Below, piece by piece: positions 3,184 through 13,953 of a stretch of 21,468 nt of DNA. Positions within the stretch are counted from its first letter, which is position 1; every line of letters starts with the position of its first letter. Origin of the DNA: a virus. Lineage: Duplodnaviria > Heunggongvirae > Uroviricota > Caudoviricetes. The translations under genes were made by a program, and so were the position numbers. Below the pieces are notes generated by a model. It was given only the letters and a program-made list of their open reading frames with translations, had not been told where the DNA came from and did not search any database. The stretch lies in IMG/VR virus record IMGVR_UViG_3300029058_000046; one strand, 5' to 3'.

Positions 3184-3791
3184 TGTACGGAAGCAAGATA
3201 TATCGATCTGACGGGAAGGTCTGGATGTCTCCTTCTTTGTCTCCTATCGTTTTTCAGAGAAAGCAGGTTGTTTCTTTGTCCGGCGGGACAGAGTTTAACA
3301 CCCAAATATCTCCAGATCGTTCACCGATGATTTTTGTTGCCTATTCGAAAGCTGTTTCATTAATAGCCAACAGAATAGTGCGTAACAACCAGGTGATTTA
3401 CAGTTTCGGAGGTCAGGGTAGCGACTCTAGTGCCACGATATACGTATTTTCGAAAGGTATAGCCAAAAAAGAAACTTGGGGCATGAGTTTTTTCAATGCA
3501 CAAGGGGAGGAAATCTATAATACGGCAAATATCCCACTTTCATTTACCTTTCTTAATAATACGGAGTGGAACAGCTCTGGAGGGCATGTTTTTGATTACC
3601 CACCAGCGATAATCCCAACATATGCGAATGTGTTCGCTGTTCCAGTACCGGGCGGAGCCATGACAATGGTTTATGGATATGCGGCATATGGAAATACTGT
3701 TAGCTCGATATTCGTAAACCAACTTAATGGCGGCCATAGTTTTAGCGTAAATGGCAGAGTACCGGTAATAAATAGAAATCTGTATAACTGA
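3183..3791 (+). CDS. Hypothetical protein (202 aa), Ser/Gly/Asn-rich; possible fiber-associated or receptor-binding accessory protein
   Basis: Long ORF coupled to the upstream ORF, same strand as the fiber gene. No catalytic motif recognised. Confidence 0.5.
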   Translation: MYGSKIYRSDGKVWMSPSLSPIVFQRKQVVSLSGGTEFNTQISPDRSPMIFVAYSKAVSLIANRIVRNNQVIYSFGGQGSDSSATIYVFSKGIAKKETWGMSFFNAQGEEIYNTANIPLSFTFLNNTEWNSSGGHVFDYPPAIIPTYANVFAVPVPGGAMTMVYGYAAYGNTVSSIFVNQLNGGHSFSVNGRVPVINRNLYN

Positions 3792-3798
3792 TGAGTAA

Positions 3799-4032
3799 AT
3801 GATGAAAAGATTATTTCTAATAATAGCTGTTGTTCTCTCTCTTACTGGCTGCCAGAAATTGCCGACACCTATATGTTACGGTGAGGCTATCATTGGTGGA
3901 CAGGAGACAGTCATACCCATATATGCTGTTAAAAAAGTGAACGACTATACCTTATACAAAGCGGGTAGTATCTATAACTGGCGATGGGTAGGAGTAGGTG
4001 CTTTCTCATCAGTCCGTTGCAATGCTGAATGA
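3799..4032 (+). CDS. Small lipoprotein (77 aa precursor); possibly a Cor/Llp-type superinfection-exclusion lipoprotein
   Basis: N-terminus MMKRLFLIIAVVLSLTGCQK has a signal peptide and lipobox L-T-G-C. Size and position just downstream of fiber genes match Cor/Llp-type exclusion lipoproteins; the function is inferred, not shown. Confidence 0.6.
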   Translation: MMKRLFLIIAVVLSLTGCQKLPTPICYGEAIIGGQETVIPIYAVKKVNDYTLYKAGSIYNWRWVGVGAFSSVRCNAE

Positions 4033-4113
4033 TAGGTAGGTACACACCTACAATAAAAGGGTGAAATGTGATATAAATCCGCCATCCCGATTTGACTTTT
4101 CATGGAGGAAAAC

Positions 4114-4437
4114 ATGTCGAACGAGATGGCGAGCGTTACAACAGAGCAAGTTGAGCGTATTGCCGCGATCGTTGCTCGGGAGGTTGTTGGCAAATTAGGT
4201 AAAGAGCTACGTGAAGAAATTGGCCAGGAGGTCAATGATCAGCTGAAAACCTACTTTGGTGATATGACCCCGGCGCAACATAGTATTCAACACTCCAATC
4301 TGGACAAACTCCTTAACCGGTTAGATTCCATCTCCAGTGGGTTCTTTGGCGGCATTGTTTCTAAAATAACGTCGTTCATTATTACTGCACTGCTTTTGGG
4401 GTTAGCCGCGTATGGCGTAAAAAATGGACTGCAATAA
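4114..4437 (+). CDS. Holin-like small membrane protein (candidate first gene of a lysis cassette)
   Basis: GGAGG Shine-Dalgarno 6 nt before the ATG at 4114 (the track's ATG at 4102 has no RBS). Hydrophilic N-terminal part, one C-terminal hydrophobic segment (ITSFIITALLLGLAAYGV). Sits immediately upstream of the endolysin candidate. Confidence 0.45.
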   Translation: MSNEMASVTTEQVERIAAIVAREVVGKLGKELREEIGQEVNDQLKTYFGDMTPAQHSIQHSNLDKLLNRLDSISSGFFGGIVSKITSFIITALLLGLAAYGVKNGLQ

Positions 4438-4450
4438 CAGGAGATCAAGG

Positions 4451-5143
4451 ATGAAGACTCCGAGAGGCATTCGTAATAATAACCCCGGTAATCTTGATAA
4501 AGGATCACCGTGGCAAGGTCTGGTTGCGAATCCAGACGAACCGCGCTTTTGCACGTTTAAAGACCCTGTTTGGGGGATTCGTGCGCTGGCGGTGACTCTA
4601 ATTACCTACCACGACAAACGTCGCGCAAAAGACGGCTCAAGTATCGATACCATTCGTGAAGTTATTGAACGTTGGGCACCGCCGAATGAAAACAACACTG
4701 ACGCCTACATTAATGAGGTGTCTAAAGCCGTTGGTGTAACCGCAGACATGATCATCGATCTGCATGATTACGACATCCTTCGACCTTTGGTTGAGGCAAT
4801 CATTCGCCACGAGAATGGTCGAGGTCCACTAAAAACGCTGAACACCTGGTATGCGGCAGAAGTTATTGAGGAAGGTCTGCGTCGAGCCGGCGTCGTTAAG
4901 CCGGTGAAAACCGTGAAGGCTGTTCCTGTAACTAAAGAAACCGCAGGCGCAACTGTCACAGCAGGTATTGGTCTGGCGCAGCTTGCCGATGTTATGCCGC
5001 AGGTTTCCGCTGCTATGGATAAAGCACAAGGTCATATCTCTAGCGGGGATACAGTACGCATCATCTTCGGTATTGCCACTATTGTTGTGGCAGGATTCAT
5101 TGCCTGGTCGCAGGTAAGAAAACACCAGAAAGGGATGGTCTAA
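4451..5143 (+). CDS. Putative endolysin / peptidoglycan hydrolase with a C-terminal hydrophobic anchor
   Basis: AGGAG RBS 8 nt before the ATG at 4451. Conserved-looking N-terminal motif GIRNNNPGNL. C-terminal hydrophobic helix IIFGIATIVVAGFIAW. Flanked by a holin-like gene and a spanin-like pair. The enzymatic family is not assigned. Confidence 0.45.
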   Translation: MKTPRGIRNNNPGNLDKGSPWQGLVANPDEPRFCTFKDPVWGIRALAVTLITYHDKRRAKDGSSIDTIREVIERWAPPNENNTDAYINEVSKAVGVTADMIIDLHDYDILRPLVEAIIRHENGRGPLKTLNTWYAAEVIEEGLRRAGVVKPVKTVKAVPVTKETAGATVTAGIGLAQLADVMPQVSAAMDKAQGHISSGDTVRIIFGIATIVVAGFIAWSQVRKHQKGMV

Positions 5144-8145: not shown

Positions 8146-8913
8146 TTATGCCGCGCTAACACTATGTTCAGTCCTAACCACCCCAACCTTCACAAAAGGG
8201 CTACCGTAGCTTGGTGGCTTCTTGATTAATTTGCCTACATACAGTTTTCTAATATGCTCATCGGCTATTCTGCCAACAAATTCATAACGTTTTGTGTCGG
8301 GGCCAAGAGCTATATCCCTTGTAAAGTACTGCTGAGAACCGGCTTTGACCCAGCATTCAATCTGATAAACTTCCATTATCAGCCCACCATATGTAGCGTA
8401 GGCATATTTGAGATTCTCGTCTCTTGGAACCTTTGCCCATACGCCACGCGTAGCCTCATATAATGCCAGAGCGGACATTCCTGACTTGTAGGTGCTGTTT
8501 AGCAGGAAGGCAAGACCGGCGTGCTCAGGAGCAATTTCAGTTTCCTCTTGCAGCACTAAGTGATGGTAGGCGTCCAGTGATATTCTGCCCATCATGGAAC
8601 CACTTCCTCGTACCTTATTCGTAAGCTCTCCGACCCCCATAAGGTCGATGCATGTCGCCTCAACAAGTTTGGCTGTGGTTTCATCCATACCATGACGAAG
8701 TATATCTATGCCTAATTTTTTATTAGCCAAAAGTTCTTTGATCCGCATGGATTTGGGAGAGTCATCGGGATACTTGATGTGATCGAGACAACGAGTCGAT
8801 TTGCCTTTTCCTATGTAAAACGGTCTTTTCATCTTGTCTTCTGTATCATAGAGACAGTAAACATAGTATTTAGCCTTATCCAATGATCTCGCGTATACCG
8901 ATAAATCGTCCAT
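8146..8913 (-). CDS. GIY-YIG nuclease-domain protein (255 aa) with an unassigned ~160-aa C-terminal domain
   Basis: N-terminal YVYCLYD...RPFYIGKGK...R..H...E pattern matches the GIY-YIG catalytic motif. Only sizeable antisense gene in the partition/replication region. Confidence 0.7.
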   Translation of the reverse strand: MDDLSVYARSLDKAKYYVYCLYDTEDKMKRPFYIGKGKSTRCLDHIKYPDDSPKSMRIKELLANKKLGIDILRHGMDETTAKLVEATCIDLMGVGELTNKVRGSGSMMGRISLDAYHHLVLQEETEIAPEHAGLAFLLNSTYKSGMSALALYEATRGVWAKVPRDENLKYAYATYGGLIMEVYQIECWVKAGSQQYFTRDIALGPDTKRYEFVGRIADEHIRKLYVGKLIKKPPSYGSPFVKVGVVRTEHSVSAA

Positions 8914-9195: not shown

Positions 9196-9936
9196 ATGAG
9201 CCAAATCTTTTTCGATACCATCGACAACGACCAGTACGACTTCATGACAGAGTGGAATACCGCTGTTATGGACAAGTGGGTCGCTGAAAACATTGGTTTG
9301 TCGCGCTGTAAAGACGAGGCTGAACTCTTCGAGACGAAGTGGTTTGATTACCGCGACATGCATCCTCTCATGGCCACCTGTCTTTTTACGGAGGCATACA
9401 AACGTCAGTACTCAAATATCATGCTGACGCACGGTCGCGAACACTTTGAAACAGCTCCGTTCACCACCGGGTTAAAACGCCTGCCTTATCAGGAGTTGTC
9501 GACTGCCAATAAAACGTCTCTATGGAAAGCACGCCAGTTTGCTGACCGCTATTGCTGCTCATACGACTACTTTATCTCCACCGTTCTTTCCGCAGCTGCA
9601 CGACGGCTGTGGGACAAGCTGCCGCGCCCACAGCATTTATGGCAGCCAGAGCTGGTTGAGATATTCGAAGAGAAATTAGCCAGACGCGCAACAACCCGTC
9701 TGGATGACTCTCTAGTTAGCTTTAAGCATATGGGAGACATGCAGTTCAACCCGATCCAGGAAAGCTATTTTGAGTGGATTCTGGAGCGTTTACGCACCAT
9801 CCCCCGCAGCAAGCGCATACGCGCAATTTTCTCCGCTATCTGGCTAATGGAAATCGTTCCAGAGCGCCTTATTTCCGCCCACTTTCCAGAAGAACTGGAA
9901 GAAGCACGGCGGTTTATTGATCCCCTATCTAATTAA
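9196..9936 (+). CDS. Hypothetical protein, first gene of the replication module (possible initiator or helicase loader, by position only)
   Basis: AGGTGA RBS 5 nt before the ATG at 9196 (the track's start at 9187 is GTG). Directly precedes the helicase gene. No motif recognised. Confidence 0.55.
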   Translation: MSQIFFDTIDNDQYDFMTEWNTAVMDKWVAENIGLSRCKDEAELFETKWFDYRDMHPLMATCLFTEAYKRQYSNIMLTHGREHFETAPFTTGLKRLPYQELSTANKTSLWKARQFADRYCCSYDYFISTVLSAAARRLWDKLPRPQHLWQPELVEIFEEKLARRATTRLDDSLVSFKHMGDMQFNPIQESYFEWILERLRTIPRSKRIRAIFSAIWLMEIVPERLISAHFPEELEEARRFIDPLSN

Positions 9937-9945
9937 CTAATACTA

Positions 9946-9961
9946 GAAAACAATTTGTTTA
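9946..9961. promoter_or_regulatory. Second copy of the AGAAAACAA(G/T)TTGTTT palindromic motif, upstream of the helicase gene
   Basis: AGAAAACAATTTGTTT, 19 nt before the ATG at 9980; matches the motif at 7016-7031. Confidence 0.3.
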
Positions 9962-9979
9962 AAAAACAAAGGAAAGCAC

Positions 9980-11320
9980 ATGACCGAACTTTGCCATACA
10001 GGACGCGGGCTGTCCGAAGAGTTTGATGAAGATTTCCAGAACAGACTGACGGCATATTTTTGTCGTGATCACGAGTTTCTTACTCGTGCGGGAGATCTGG
10101 TTGTGCCTAGCCAATTTGCCAATGCGGCCAATGCCATATTGGTTAATATGGTTTCGGGCTATTACCGTATGTACAAGAGCGCGCCTTCTTCATCTGCGAT
10201 TCTGGATATGCTTAAGCGTGCGAAACGCGATAAGACCATCCGTGAGGAACTCTTCCCGGATGTTGTTGCTGCGTTTAAGCGCATCCTTGCAGAAAAATTG
10301 TCTGATACCTCGTACATGGTTGACCAGGTATCCACATTCGCAAAAAGTGTAGCGTTTGATGATGCTCTGATTAAAGCTGCTGAACTGAAAGAGAAGGGCG
10401 ACTTTCAGGGGGCGATGGCAATCATGGCCAAGGTTCAGCAGATAGGCTCGAACGAAGCGACCGGAATCTATGACTACTACACCTCCGCAAGTGAGCGATT
10501 GAAAGCGCGTGAATATGAGGCTTCAGAGGAGTATGTGCCAAACAGCATTACAACTGGACTCCCTCTGCTTGATAGATTGCTGTACCAAAAAGGCTGGGCA
10601 AAGCGCGAAATGGTGCTCTTCATGGGTTTTGCTAAATCCGGTAAATCGACCGCAATGGGTGAGTTTTCCATAAACGCTACGCTTGCTGGCTACAATGTTC
10701 TGTATCTCTCGCTGGAGGTTCACACCACCATTTTGTCCGACCGTTTTGATGCAAGATTGTCGGAGACGGAAATGTCCAAGCTGGTGGAACGGCGCGATGA
10801 AGTTCATCGCAAGTTGGCAGAGTTGGGAGCCACGAAGGGGATTGGTAGTTTGTGGGTTGTTGAGCGTCCGTCAGGAAGTATGTCACCGGCAGATCTGGAC
10901 CGTATGCTTAACAGTATGAAAGCCAATGGCATGGTGCCTGACATGGTTGTTGTCGACTACGCAGATTTGATGCGTGCCAGTTATGACCTTCGTGATGATC
11001 GCGCCAACATTCGTAGTATCTACACCGATTTACGTGCTCTTTATGACAAGCATAACGTTGCTGGTATCACGGCGTCGCAAACAAACCGTGAAGGTGGCGC
11101 GTCAGAAGTTGCCACAATGATGCACGCTGCCGACAACATCGAAAAAGTACGTATTGCTGACCTGGTAATAACGATCAACAAAACCGAAGAAGAAGAAGCG
11201 AAAGGAGAGGCTCGTCTCTACTTTGCTGGTTCGCGTAACCAGCAGGGAGGGATCAGCATTCGCGTTAAACAAAACCTCGAACAAATGCGCTTCATTGAGC
11301 GAATCTTAGACGTTACCTAA
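9980..11320 (+). CDS. DnaB-family replicative DNA helicase
   Basis: Walker A GFAKSGKST, SLE motif (LYLSLEV), Walker B-like VVVDYADLM and SQTNRE motif, in the order typical of DnaB/T7 gp4-type RecA-fold helicases. AAGGA RBS upstream. Confidence 0.85.
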   Translation: MTELCHTGRGLSEEFDEDFQNRLTAYFCRDHEFLTRAGDLVVPSQFANAANAILVNMVSGYYRMYKSAPSSSAILDMLKRAKRDKTIREELFPDVVAAFKRILAEKLSDTSYMVDQVSTFAKSVAFDDALIKAAELKEKGDFQGAMAIMAKVQQIGSNEATGIYDYYTSASERLKAREYEASEEYVPNSITTGLPLLDRLLYQKGWAKREMVLFMGFAKSGKSTAMGEFSINATLAGYNVLYLSLEVHTTILSDRFDARLSETEMSKLVERRDEVHRKLAELGATKGIGSLWVVERPSGSMSPADLDRMLNSMKANGMVPDMVVVDYADLMRASYDLRDDRANIRSIYTDLRALYDKHNVAGITASQTNREGGASEVATMMHAADNIEKVRIADLVITINKTEEEEAKGEARLYFAGSRNQQGGISIRVKQNLEQMRFIERILDVT

Positions 11321-11327
11321 AAAATAA

Positions 11328-11348
11328 GCGTGGAGAACACCTCCACGC
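11328..11348 (+). other. Perfect 8-bp hairpin (gcgtggag-aacac-ctccacgc) between the helicase stop and the primase gene
   Basis: Inverted repeat read directly. It contains the GTG that the ORF track uses as the primase start (11330), so that start is unlikely to be real. No U-tract. Confidence 0.35.
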
Positions 11349-11401
11349 TTGATTCATTGGTGAAACAACTTTTCTTTTGCCAAACCACAAAAGAAAAACA
11401 C

Positions 11402-12583
11402 ATGAGCCTTTATGTTATATCAACATTTAGGTTGGTCACAATATTGCCTGTTAAAAGTGGAATTATCGTGAGCGAGCTGAAAGAGCTAATTACCGAATTA
11501 GATTTTGAACAATGGTTGGATACTGAAGGTATCGTTTATCGACGTGGAGGCGTGAGTACTCGCGGTCGTGAAGTGAATATCAAGGAGTGTCCGGTATGCG
11601 GCAGCTCCAACTGGAAGGTATATTTCAATCTGACCAGTGGCGTCGGTAAATGCTTCGCTGGTGATCATCCCGAAGAGATTCAGTTCAATAAGCTGGTCTT
11701 CCTCAAGCACTACAGCGGTAAATCACGACGACAGTTCGAGGAATATGTGCAGAACGCTCTTCTTTCCCAGGGGTGGGCACCAAAGAAAGAAGAGATAGTG
11801 CTTGCAAGCACAGTCGAGTTAGAGGGACCAGTTGCACTCCCTCGTCATTACGATCTTCCTATAGATGGCCATCTTCCAGACTATCTGGTTGAACGAAATA
11901 TATCGCCTGAAATGGCAAAGTATTTTGACCTACGATACTGCGTCGAAGGCAAGCACGCTTATGTAGATCCGTATACAGATCAGGTTAAAGGACAGATTTT
12001 CGATATGCGAATACTGATACCGGTTTACGATCTGGATGGGGTAATGAAGACATTTCAAGGACGAGACATTACCGGTACAGCAGAACGCCGCTACCTCTTT
12101 CCTATGCAGCTTCCAGCTTCAGGTAAGTTTCTCTACAACGGCCACAATGCAGTCGGCAAACAGACTGTAGTTGTCTGTGAGGGGGCGTTCGATGTTATGG
12201 GGGTCAAACGAGCTATTTTTGACGAAGAAACATTACGCGATTACGTGGAACCAATAGGAACGTTCGGGATGCATCTATCTGGTAACACCACTCAGGATGC
12301 AGAAGATCAGTTGGGCGCGTTCCTGACGCTCAAGGCGCGTGGATTACGTAATGTGATCATGATGTGGGATAGTGAAAAGCAAGCTATACGAAACACTATG
12401 GCCGCAGCCAGGCGACTGACCAGTATCGGTCTTAATGTGAAAATTGCATGTTTGGGCGAGGAAGGACTCGACCCCGGCGATGCGACCCCGGGGCAGATTA
12501 TCAAAGCCTACTATTGCGCAAAACCTTACTCACGACAGCTTGAACTTTTAAGCAAGGTAAAAGGCATAGCAGCATTAGTTTGA
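11402..12583 (+). CDS. DNA primase (zinc-ribbon plus TOPRIM domain)
   Basis: Zinc-binding motif CPVCGSS...GKCFAGDH and TOPRIM-like acidic motifs (VVVCEGAFDVMGV, EEGLDPGD). Start uncertain: ATG 11402 or GTG 11468; 11330 sits inside a hairpin. Confidence 0.75.
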   Translation: MSLYVISTFRLVTILPVKSGIIVSELKELITELDFEQWLDTEGIVYRRGGVSTRGREVNIKECPVCGSSNWKVYFNLTSGVGKCFAGDHPEEIQFNKLVFLKHYSGKSRRQFEEYVQNALLSQGWAPKKEEIVLASTVELEGPVALPRHYDLPIDGHLPDYLVERNISPEMAKYFDLRYCVEGKHAYVDPYTDQVKGQIFDMRILIPVYDLDGVMKTFQGRDITGTAERRYLFPMQLPASGKFLYNGHNAVGKQTVVVCEGAFDVMGVKRAIFDEETLRDYVEPIGTFGMHLSGNTTQDAEDQLGAFLTLKARGLRNVIMMWDSEKQAIRNTMAAARRLTSIGLNVKIACLGEEGLDPGDATPGQIIKAYYCAKPYSRQLELLSKVKGIAALV

Positions 12584-13720
12584 ACCAGTATTAGTCACGT
12601 ACACATTGACCGAAAATGATTTAACTTCTGTGTTGAAGTTGTCAGTCATTACCGCGAGGTAGGCATTCTTGGTATCTCTGAATTGCTTCAGTATGATTTG
12701 AACGTTATCGGTGCAAACAAACGAGGTAGCCAGATTGCCTCCTTTCTCTGAAAAATCCTTCAGGAAGGTGCAGTCAACTTTGCCATCATTAGCGGTGAAG
12801 GTAGCATCATCACCCTGCCAGGTAAATGTAGCGTTAACGCCCTTATCAATGGATTTAGCAATAAGTCGCTGGGTGGCGGATTTTGTTTTGGCTTTGGAAG
12901 CCGGCGCTCGATATTTGCCGCTTTCTTTCAGTTCTGCAATGTAATCACAGCCATTTTTATCTTCTTTATCACAAGCAGCCTGATAAAGCTCAGCTGCTTT
13001 TTTATAGTCTTTTTTAACCCCTTCACCATACTCATACATAATGCCAAGATTTGTCATGGCATCGGCGTTTCCGAGTTCAGCAGCTTTTTTATACCACTTA
13101 ATTGCTTCGGCATCGTTGCGTTTAACACCTAAACCGTCATCGTATAAGGTGCCTAATGCGAACATGCCATCTGAACTACCTTGATCCGCCGCTTTTTTGT
13201 AATAAGTAAAAGCTTTTTTATAACTCTTTTGTACACCTTTACCATATTGGTAATACGCACCAAGAAGGTAGCTAGCTTTAACATACCCGGCATCAGAGGC
13301 TAGTTTGAAGTATTTAATGGCGAGCGCATGATCTACTTTACCAAGCATCCCCTTTTGATAAATAGCACCAAGATTGTTATAGGCTCTACCTTCACGAGCA
13401 TCTCCCGCAAGTTTGTAGTACTCAACTGCTTTATTTAAGTCTTTATCTACACCCTCGCCAAATGTGTACATAACCCCAAGTGCATAATATGCTACTTTGT
13501 CTCCCTTTTCTGCAGCGAGATCAATCCACTTCTTGGCCTCAACTACATCCTTATCAAAACCATTGATACCATCAAAATAATTTGTCCCTAACTCACTTTG
13601 TGCTGCGGTATCCCCTGCGGTAGCGGCTTCTATCAGCGTTTGTTTATTGTCTGCGTTAACGAATCCAGAGCTAAAAAGCAAAGTTAATGCCAGCAACGAT
13701 GAAGATTTTATGTATTTCAT
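12575..13720 (-). CDS. Secreted Sel1-like repeat protein with a ~130-aa non-repeat Cys-containing C-terminal domain
   Basis: Sec signal peptide MKYIKSSSLLALTLLFSSGFVNA/DN, then at least six ~36-aa repeats of the form A..YY..G.MY..GEGV.KD..KA..WYKKAA typical of Sel1 repeats. 3' end overlaps the primase 3' end by 9 bp. Start taken at the ATG for MKYIK; the track's TTG at 13765 is less likely. Confidence 0.75.
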   Translation of the reverse strand: MKYIKSSSLLALTLLFSSGFVNADNKQTLIEAATAGDTAAQSELGTNYFDGINGFDKDVVEAKKWIDLAAEKGDKVAYYALGVMYTFGEGVDKDLNKAVEYYKLAGDAREGRAYNNLGAIYQKGMLGKVDHALAIKYFKLASDAGYVKASYLLGAYYQYGKGVQKSYKKAFTYYKKAADQGSSDGMFALGTLYDDGLGVKRNDAEAIKWYKKAAELGNADAMTNLGIMYEYGEGVKKDYKKAAELYQAACDKEDKNGCDYIAELKESGKYRAPASKAKTKSATQRLIAKSIDKGVNATFTWQGDDATFTANDGKVDCTFLKDFSEKGGNLATSFVCTDNVQIILKQFRDTKNAYLAVMTDNFNTEVKSFSVNVYVTNTGSN

Positions 13721-13953
13721 ATTTTTTGTTCTGTTGATATAGGATGAACAGTTTAGACGCGGCAAGTGTCAAGTGTGCGAAAAATGGTACTTAAATTTAG
13801 TTAATATGTCAGCTTTGTTGATTTAGTTTATGGTCGGTAAAGTTACTAGGAAACTAATAACCATAAGAAATAGTACGCCATTTAATTATTGTGGCACTGC
13901 TCGTGTTTTGATTAACTAATACCTGCGATAAATATAAATAAAGGGAAGCCAAC

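Follow-up and report, generated by a model that had tools for sequence, protein, structure and literature searches.

A predicted minus-strand antisense RNA and a short leader reading frame upstream of the T4-type primase gene in SSU5/pHCM2-like phage-plasmids

The DNA stretch analysed here, hereafter the window (the whole 21,468 nucleotides (nt) of IMG/VR virus record IMGVR_UViG_3300029058_000046, a member of the Caudoviricetes), carries the genes of a DnaB-family helicase and of a separate DNA primase, which follow each other on the plus strand and leave a gap with a hairpin directly 3' of the helicase stop codon. We propose that this hairpin is the terminator of an unannotated small RNA read from the minus strand, and that this RNA most likely lowers primase synthesis, a reading to which we assign a probability of about 0.6. 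The predicted antisense RNA (11318-11405, minus strand) is approximately 86 nt long and would run from a 5' end at 11403-11406 to a 3' end at approximately 11318-11321. The initial annotation had considered the hairpin as a possible attenuator of plus-strand transcription. This was not supported, since the T-run is found on the minus strand in all 12 lineages compared and a conserved minus-strand promoter faces the hairpin. RNA-level control of the primase is still the best reading of the locus, via an antisense RNA instead of attenuation of the helicase transcript.

The hairpin (AAGCGTGGAG-aacac-CTCCACGCTT, positions 11326-11350, arms at 11326-11335 and 11341-11350) begins 5 nt past the helicase TAA and consists of 10 perfect pairs enclosing a 5-nt loop. 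It had been described initially as a perfect hairpin overlapping the GTG codon at 11330, which indeed lies in its 5' arm, and only the stem length, given as 8 base pairs (bp) instead of 10, needs correction. Read on the minus strand, it comprises 11 pairs, including G.U and 6 G-C, with a 3-nt loop, and is followed by a U-tract at 11318-11325 (AUUUUUUA on the minus strand), which appears on the plus strand as an A-run overlapping the helicase TAA. The hairpin core GCGTGG-N(3-20)-CCACGC occurs once in the window, as compared with 0.01 expected occurrences, and neither iterons nor direct repeats were found in the region 11250-11550; a repeated palindromic element was rejected on these grounds. 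As a separate observation, the sequence CCTCCACG of the hairpin 3' arm (11340-11347) is perfectly complementary to CGTGGAGG (11543-11550), located 195 nt downstream in the primase coding sequence, which could reflect an alternative pairing of the mRNA or chance.

We compared the locus with a sample of 82 related loci (designated below by L numbers) that comprise 48 distinct intergenic variants, and the hairpin was found at the same position in all 48. Explicit stem boundaries were set for 12 lineages, and T residues were counted in the 10 nt beyond the stem. The minus-strand tail contains on average 6.8 T out of 10, with a run of at least five in 11 of the 12 lineages, whereas the plus-strand tail contains on average 3.2 and no run longer than three; the count is higher on the minus strand in every lineage. 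In the L048 group, the plus-strand A-run no longer adjoins the helicase stop codon and has nevertheless been retained. In a consensus scan of the window (tail ATTTTTT), of Salmonella phage SSU5 and of the distant locus L090, the hairpin was recognized as terminator-like only on the minus strand. The features of an intrinsic terminator are thus found on the minus strand, with 11 pairs and the tail AUUUUUU, and are lacking on the plus strand, where the tail is GAUUCAUUGG. Overall, the hairpin looks like a Rho-independent terminator oriented for minus-strand transcription.

A candidate promoter for such a transcript was recognized in alignment A2, a MAFFT alignment of the minus strand of 43 distinct variants. 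The conserved block consists of TTGATA, a 16-nt spacer and TAnnAT, in which T1, A2, A5 and T6 are invariant; the spacer length is the same in all 43 variants, whereas the spacer sequence varies freely. In the window, the -10 hexamer TAACAT (11412-11417, minus strand) is preceded at a distance of 16 nt by the -35 element GTGACC (11434-11439, minus strand), which in relatives is mostly TTGATA, TTGCCA or TTGAAA; an alternative -35 element with an 18-nt spacer is TTGTGA (11436-11441, minus strand). Among 18 lineage representatives, all have TAnnAT exactly 6 nt before (T/A)CATGTG, and 15 have a TTG-type -35 element at the 16-nt spacing. Seven variants of the -10 hexamer were observed (TAACAT, TACCAT, TATCAT, TATGAT, TAATAT, TAAGAT and TATAAT). 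The hexamer overlaps a plus-strand open reading frame (ORF), in the window at codons 4-6 of the leader ORF described below (plus-strand complement ATGTTA), and its variable positions alter the encoded residues non-conservatively (G, V, I, D), so the constraint looks like that of a promoter and not of a peptide. In an unbiased scan of SSU5, TTGATA-16-TACCAT on the minus strand is the only promoter-like site in 2.8 kb, and in L090 the scan recovered, again on the minus strand, TTGCCA-16-TATAAT, which agrees with the consensus at 11 of 12 positions. We regard this block, located approximately 60 nt from the hairpin and facing it, as a predicted sigma-70-type promoter on the minus strand inside the primase leader region.

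A minus-strand terminator at this place might also serve to halt read-through from the gene of a Sel1/TPR-repeat protein (12575-13765, minus strand; 396 amino acids (aa); Pfam Sel1, 7.6e-53), which converges on the primase gene with a 9-nt overlap with its stop codon. In the window and in SSU5, the end of the minus-strand gene coincides with the primase stop codon or falls within it, which leaves no space for a terminator of its own. This explanation is nevertheless very improbable: the terminator would be located 1.2 kb downstream of the gene, the promoter would be ignored, and a minus-strand ORF of at least 100 aa after the primase is missing in 37 of the 82 related loci, while the hairpin and the U-tract are kept in all. 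It was rejected on account of these 37 loci. The slot 3' of the primase is variable among the relatives, holding minus-strand genes of 345-417 aa, plus-strand genes or nothing, and looks like a hotspot of accessory genes.

The promoter and the terminator would delimit the predicted antisense RNA, whose length in relatives ranges from 71 to 108 nt. Between them lies a second hairpin, the stem-loop SL-A (11370-11397, minus strand), with arms TTTTCTTTTG (11370-11379) and CAAAAGAAAA (11388-11397) around a loop of 8 nt as read on the plus strand; in the minus-strand RNA, it is a 5' AU-rich stem-loop of 12 pairs with the 6-nt loop GGUUUG. The predicted RNA, taken as a 91-nt minus-strand stretch, folds at -30.8 kcal/mol with z = -4.6, and a 163-nt stretch of the plus strand folds with z = -4.1. 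In alignment A2, 93.1% of the cells are paired, as compared with 55-67% when the 3' partners are slid, and the covariation score of 0.215, versus 0.139 in shuffles, was reached by none of 500 shuffles, a significance that such controls overstate, since the related sequences are not independent. For example, the SL-A pair 92-114 of this alignment occurs as UA (25), CG (11), AU (4) and UG (3), and several pairs of the terminator switch among AU, GC and CG. Out of 473, standard pairs number 433 in the minus-strand reading versus 374 in the plus-strand reading for SL-A, and 442 versus 410 for the terminator; the model-made alignment A5, which has spurious plus-strand rows, was left out of these counts. 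This asymmetry between G.U and C.A is a tendency, as expected if the minus-strand RNA is the molecule under selection. Both hairpins are retained despite different sequences in L087 (terminator AAGGCGUUCC..GGAGCGCCUU, also found in L103), L092 (SL-A CGGUU..AACCG; terminator GUGCG..CGCAC, then U9), L099 (SL-A CCCUUGUU..AACAGGG) and L090 (a long SL-A; terminator GAGGCAGCUC..GGGCUGCCUU). On this sequence evidence, the existence of the RNA appears quite probable.

We further used a covariance model, R1, made from alignment A4 with 15 sequences of the SSU5 clade. R1 recognizes a single significant copy in the window (89.5 bits) and finds held-out loci on the minus strand and at the expected place, namely L099 (2e-8), L087 (1e-6), L103 (2e-6) and L092 (1.5e-3), as well as weaker minus-strand matches at the expected position in the L048 group and in L090. 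A permissive scan of Rfam gave no family at its gathering score, the best matches being MicC (25.7 bits versus 90) and STnc390 (20.3 bits versus 50); membership in a known Rfam family was rejected, these sub-threshold matches being merely terminator-like. The RefSeq annotation of the locus contains only two protein-coding genes and no RNA, and nothing relevant was found in the literature searched for small RNAs and transcriptomes of SSU5/pHCM2 or for regulation of the helicase and primase.

The build of the predicted RNA, with a 5' region, a stem-loop, a terminator and a long U tail, is like that of enterobacterial Hfq-type small RNAs, and the weak Rfam resemblances are all to such RNAs and on the minus strand. 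A real minus-strand RNA might therefore have its main role in trans, on host or phage mRNAs, or it might be an origin-associated or primer transcript, a role once proposed for the oop RNA of phage lambda. The RNA is located within a block of replication genes, and in a distant relative of the element, an Aeromonas caviae plasmid (L088, NZ_CP068233.1, locus 2003-2326), the gene of the RNA chaperone Hfq lies directly 5' of the DnaB-like helicase gene; two small genes are inserted between helicase and primase in the same plasmid. We consider these main roles quite unlikely. Full complementarity to the adjacent leader and a 5' end opposite the start of a leader ORF (see below) are traits of a cis-antisense RNA, and the region 11250-11550 is free of iterons and direct repeats, as noted above.

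The presumed target of the antisense RNA is the leader of the primase gene, whose start had to be distinguished among several in-frame codons. As initially annotated, helicase and primase are separate plus-strand genes with the helicase first (ORFs 9980-11320 and 11330-12583, the latter of 417 aa when read from GTG 11330), and both ATG 11402 and GTG 11468 share the reading frame of the primase. The proposal that GTG 11330, inside the hairpin, is not the start and that the real one lies downstream was borne out by the homologues. A search for homologues of the primase found 311 proteins, and among the matches listed nearly all have 356-383 aa. When 14 homologues (41-87% identity) were aligned to the long ORF, every N-terminus fell at most approximately 3 residues from V47, which corresponds to GTG 11468, and none reached across the hairpin; the conserved N-terminus reads (M/V)S(E/D)LKEL..LDFEQW. 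Of 12 lineages, five have an in-frame stop codon 3-33 nt 5' of the position of GTG 11468, and only two have an in-frame GTG inside the hairpin. GTG 11330 was rejected as the primase start by its position in the hairpin, the homologue N-termini and these stop codons. As judged from the alignments, the start conserved in the family is the position of GTG 11468, from which the primase gene (11468-12583, plus strand) encodes 371 aa. It should be noted that at least three starts are in use in public annotations, namely the GTG or ATG equivalent to 11468 (Cyrano, SSU5), ATG 11402 (PhiR41_1) and the ATT equivalent to 11462 (PGAP, NZ_CP103696), an annotation problem that the family-conserved position settles. 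Many RefSeq records name this gene just 'hypothetical protein'.

Upstream of this start, the ATG at 11402, which lies in a conserved CACATG, opens a leader ORF of 22 codons (11402-11467, plus strand; peptide MSLYVISTFRLVTILPVKSGII). In the window's own lineage, these 22 codons are open and in frame with the primase, and a primase form of 393 aa starting from ATG 11402 is possible there. In most lineages, no stop codon interrupts the leader frame before the primase start; the other two frames hold 2-4 stops. In eight of approximately ten lineages, the leader ORF is either fused to the primase or ends between -12 and +7 nt from its start. It continues in frame into the primase in the lineages with a GTG as family start (the window, L017/L049/L069 and L041) and in L087; elsewhere it stops in an ATGA overlap (SSU5), 2 nt short of the primase ATG (L092 and the Klebsiella L062 group), after overlapping the primase by 7 nt (L090) or 12 nt upstream (L071). 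This fusion or abutment is kept despite indels and unrelated peptides. The peptide itself is unconserved among distant lineages, as illustrated by L087 (MYCHINLWPAKCKVYQ), L090 (MFNNYKAKTAIGKGVCNG) and L092 (MRLNLTKSAISGKR), suggesting that the leader ORF, if it matters, acts as a translated leader and not through its protein product. The leader ATG lies opposite the 5' end of the predicted antisense RNA, and the mRNA position for its Shine-Dalgarno sequence is the 3' arm of SL-A.

A fairly hydrophobic ORF of 22 codons whose start is covered by an antisense RNA also fits, in outline, a type I toxin-antitoxin system, with a small hydrophobic toxic peptide starting at ATG 11402 and the antisense RNA as the antitoxin. 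This explanation is hardly credible. The peptide is not hydrophobic in L087, L090 and L092, forms one polypeptide frame with the primase in several lineages and is cut to 6 aa in another, and the toxin reading was rejected for its lack of conservation.

Returning to the antisense reading, the RNA has a predicted promoter of its own on the opposite strand within the leader of its target, contains covarying stem-loops and is fully complementary to the helicase-primase intercistronic mRNA, including the region of the leader ORF start; these are the hallmarks of a cis-antisense RNA. From the promoter, the hairpins, their covariation, the primase start and the gene order, all of them read in the sequence, we infer the following scheme. 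Transcription of the minus strand from the -35 (11439-11434) and -10 (11417-11412) elements would begin at approximately 11405 and end at approximately 11318. With helicase and primase assumed to be co-transcribed, the antisense RNA would pair with the intercistronic mRNA at the leader ORF start, and this pairing would block translation of the leader and hence the coupled translation of the primase. Alternatively or in addition, the RNA duplex may be a substrate for cleavage by RNase III. The expected outcome would be less primase relative to helicase. For this mechanism in its entirety, we see the chances as nearly balanced.

Several observations weigh against the antisense scheme, besides the non-independence of the aligned sequences mentioned above. 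The promoter of the window is weak (GTGACC/TAACAT) and was not called by the scan because it matches just 8 of the 12 consensus positions. The leader ORF has a poor Shine-Dalgarno sequence and is broken in some lineages, being reduced to 6 codons in L051, lacking an ATG in L064 and being absent from the L048 group. If the primase had a promoter of its own downstream of the RNA start, no target for pairing would be left, and a weak plus-strand promoter candidate is present in L090. The R1 search of relatives with a primase identity of at most 58% (Xenorhabdus, Moellerella, Morganella, Photobacterium, Aeromonas, Acinetobacter and alpha- and beta-proteobacterial elements) found no antisense module. 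The strand evidence from pairing is a tendency and not a rule, as some lineages, such as the L017-type variants, pair better on the plus strand (-20.2 versus -15.8 kcal/mol). Finally, the hairpin found at the same place in Acinetobacter pABTJ2 (L093) has its T-rich tail AATTTTATCT on the plus strand, in the opposite orientation.

These last two points also fit a different explanation, in which the hairpin is a weak plus-strand terminator or attenuator, or a 3' stabiliser, after the helicase gene that makes primase message scarcer than helicase message, or else a bidirectional terminator. The stem is, moreover, equally stable on the two strands (-17.2 versus -17.0 kcal/mol). The upstream A-tract together with the moderately T-rich tail GATTCATTGG (4 T of 10) fits a weak bidirectional function, a separate plus-strand terminator-like hairpin lies alongside in L090, and an internal terminator precedes dnaG in the rpsU-dnaG-rpoD operon of E. 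coli. However, no lineage has a plus-strand T-run longer than three, with just one or two T in the plus-strand tails of L041, L017 and L090, and the scan never calls the hairpin on the plus strand in the window or in SSU5. An attenuator would also leave unexplained both the fixed-distance promoter and the G.U excess of the minus strand. As the main role of the hairpin, this explanation is unlikely; a plus-strand or bidirectional role is possible as a secondary function of the antisense terminator.

Some relatives outside the range of the antisense module have other elements in the same intergenic region. Three loci of Xenorhabdus, Moellerella and one metagenomic contig (L086 2873-2890, L084 2432-2448 and L089 2937-2952), all of which lack the module, share the motif GTGACTCC(C/A)GATC directly past the helicase stop codon. 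In Acinetobacter baumannii pABTJ2 (L093, locus 2396-2482), a 14-bp stem (AGCGCTTATTTATA/TATAAATAAGCGCT) is located between helicase and primase, the primase of this phage-plasmid being 40% identical to that of the window. The latter hairpin could be a sense-strand terminator or attenuator. An intergenic hairpin is a recurrent feature of the family, with its orientation reversed in Acinetobacter.

The helicase gene (9980-11320, plus strand; TAA stop codon at 11318-11320) encodes a predicted protein of 446 aa with the Walker A motif GFAKSGKST. It matches Pfam DnaB_C (3.9e-13, 49.8 bits, cut-off 27) and PHROG 19, a DnaB-like helicase family (1e-87), and aligns with T4 gp41 at 21% identity over approximately 400 aa (E = 2e-13), the Walker A motif being aligned with the P-loop region of gp41. 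By its family profile and Walker A motif, the protein is assigned to the DnaB family, T4 gp41 type. The predicted primase has a zinc ribbon (CPVC...C) and the TOPRIM motif EGAFD. It scores just above the cut-off for Toprim_2 (22.3 bits, cut-off 22.1) and just below it for DNAG_N (25.4 bits, cut-off 26), matches PHROG 47, a DNA primase family (2e-62), and aligns with T4 gp61 at 24% identity (E = 2e-9), with its zinc motif opposite CPVCG of gp61. The pattern C-P-x-C...C is invariant in 15 homologues (C87, C90 and C108 in long-ORF numbering), and so is EGAFDV among the homologues (E284, G285 and D288 in the same numbering). By its zinc motif, the E-G-x-x-D signature and these profiles, the protein is assigned to the zinc-ribbon/TOPRIM primases of DnaG type, T4 gp61 type. 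The best PDB matches are 8due and 8dtp for the helicase and 5guj, 8gao and 8dvf for the primase, and those of both proteins belong to one set of helicase and helicase-primase entries (8due, 8dtp, 8dvf and 8gao), which we take to be entries of the T4 primosome.

Three side observations were made at the helicase start. The start region ACAAAGGAAAGCACATGA (9937-9985) is closely similar to the leader ORF start region ACAAAAGAAAAACACATGA (11386-11405). Weak matches to the RNA model (E = 2-4) are located on the minus strand just 5' of the helicase start in the window (9898-9983), in L087 (1054-1104) and in L090 (959-1016). Overlapping palindromes (AAACAA-T-TTGTTT-AAA-AAACAAA) are found upstream of the helicase.

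Over the region 9900-12700, the window shares 95-97% identity with Escherichia phages Cyrano (97%), CMS-2020a and PhiR41_1, and 80% with Salmonella phage SSU5. Identity to E. coli plasmid NZ_CP022167 reaches 100% over the stretch 11000-11800, which has matches in 761 plasmids of PLSDB with sizes of approximately 100-115 kb, whose hosts include Klebsiella, Escherichia, Enterobacter, Salmonella, Citrobacter and others. The intergenic stretch is present in 212 of 5,426 complete E. coli genomes, each time on a plasmid. Based on these identities, the window is part of an SSU5/pHCM2-like phage-plasmid, and the neighbouring genes, which encode a tail fibre, ParA, a GIY-YIG protein and an ATP-dependent DNA ligase, agree with this assignment. 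The ORF with a LEM-3-like GIY-YIG nuclease domain (8146-8913, minus strand; 255 aa; 5.5e-7) is located on the strand opposite to its neighbours, in the place where Cyrano has an annotated plus-strand hypothetical gene, and may be an insertion of homing-endonuclease type.

In E. coli plasmid NZ_CP029421.1 (L094, locus 3571-4887), the match to the window stops at approximately 11385, within SL-A, and is followed by ISEc52, an insertion sequence of the IS3 family, and then by the DNA ligase gene, so that the primase and its neighbours are deleted. The plasmid, of 101 kb, remains a complete circular replicon. This persistence despite the loss of the primase suggests that the primase is dispensable for maintenance in the plasmid state.

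We tentatively suggest, as an idea that is more doubtful than the antisense RNA itself, that SSU5/pHCM2-like phage-plasmids of Enterobacteriaceae carry an undescribed circuit of an antisense RNA and a leader ORF that sets the dose of a T4-type primase as part of a switch between plasmid and phage replication. If true, the circuit may silence the replication machinery of phage type while the element lives as a plasmid and free it when lytic replication is due, an idea that derives from the persistence of the plasmid without primase. We found no description of how phage-type replication genes are regulated in the plasmid state in the literature searched. The phage-plasmid family concerned includes the pHCM2-type elements and is common in clinical E. 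coli, Klebsiella, Enterobacter and Salmonella, and the predicted RNA would be a regulatory RNA that is conserved in this family but has escaped annotation. With its predicted ends, promoter and target, an RNA of approximately 86 nt offers a direct experimental handle.

As regards gene order, the initial annotation had pointed to the arrangement of helicase and primase as the reverse of that in the fused T7 gp4. This contrast loses its interest, since both proteins are of T4 type and, in the T4 record, gene 41 lies ahead of gene 61 on one strand and is separated from it by five small genes. Relatives from Xenorhabdus, Moellerella, Aeromonas, Klebsiella and Acinetobacter likewise have the helicase before the primase, in some cases with small genes in between. 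An unusual gene order was rejected on both grounds; the helicase-then-primase order is the ordinary T4 arrangement. The locus resembles T4 41/61 in having separate genes on one strand, with the helicase first and both proteins alignable with their T4 counterparts, and it differs in the 147-nt gap instead of five intervening genes and in the low protein identity; we know of no antisense RNA at the T4 locus. T7 gp4 shares the activities of a zinc-ribbon/TOPRIM primase and a DnaB-family helicase, and PHROG 239 (primase/helicase) weakly matches both window proteins. In T7, however, a single polypeptide has the primase at its N-terminus, whereas in the window the helicase ORF comes first and is followed by a stop codon, a gap of 147 nt and then the primase ORF. 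A fused primase-helicase of gp4 type was rejected for this reason, and T7 gp4 is a less apt comparator than T4.

For the predicted antisense RNA, the closest parallels are found in plasmid replication control and in small phage RNAs. In the CopA/tap/repA system of plasmid R1 and the Inc RNA/repY/repZ systems of IncI-alpha and IncB plasmids, the promoter of a countertranscript lies within the leader of a replication gene, a leader ORF reaches or overlaps the start of the next gene, and the antisense RNA acts through translational coupling. The likeness lies in a short stem-loop countertranscript with an intrinsic terminator and in a short leader ORF abutting the target. In contrast, the target here is a primase within a helicase-primase operon and not a Rep initiator, there is no kinship in sequence or in Rfam, and in several lineages the leader runs in frame into the primase instead of being coupled to it; moreover, plasmid NZ_CP029421 persists with its primase deleted, and a role in copy number is not part of our claim. 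Among phages, the sar RNA of P22 (arc-ant) and the oop RNA of lambda are antisense RNAs of approximately 70-80 nt with their own promoter and intrinsic terminator that lower expression of a neighbouring gene; sar covers the ribosome-binding site of ant, while oop overlaps the 3' end of cII and adjoins the replication genes. The RNA predicted here is likewise a small phage antisense RNA complementary to an intercistronic region or gene end in an operon, although the genes and sequences are other ones and it covers the helicase stop codon, the spacer and the leader ORF start. In summary, the helicase, the primase and their order are of known kinds, and the antisense RNA would join the known class of countertranscripts at an unusual site, in front of the primase gene of a phage-plasmid.

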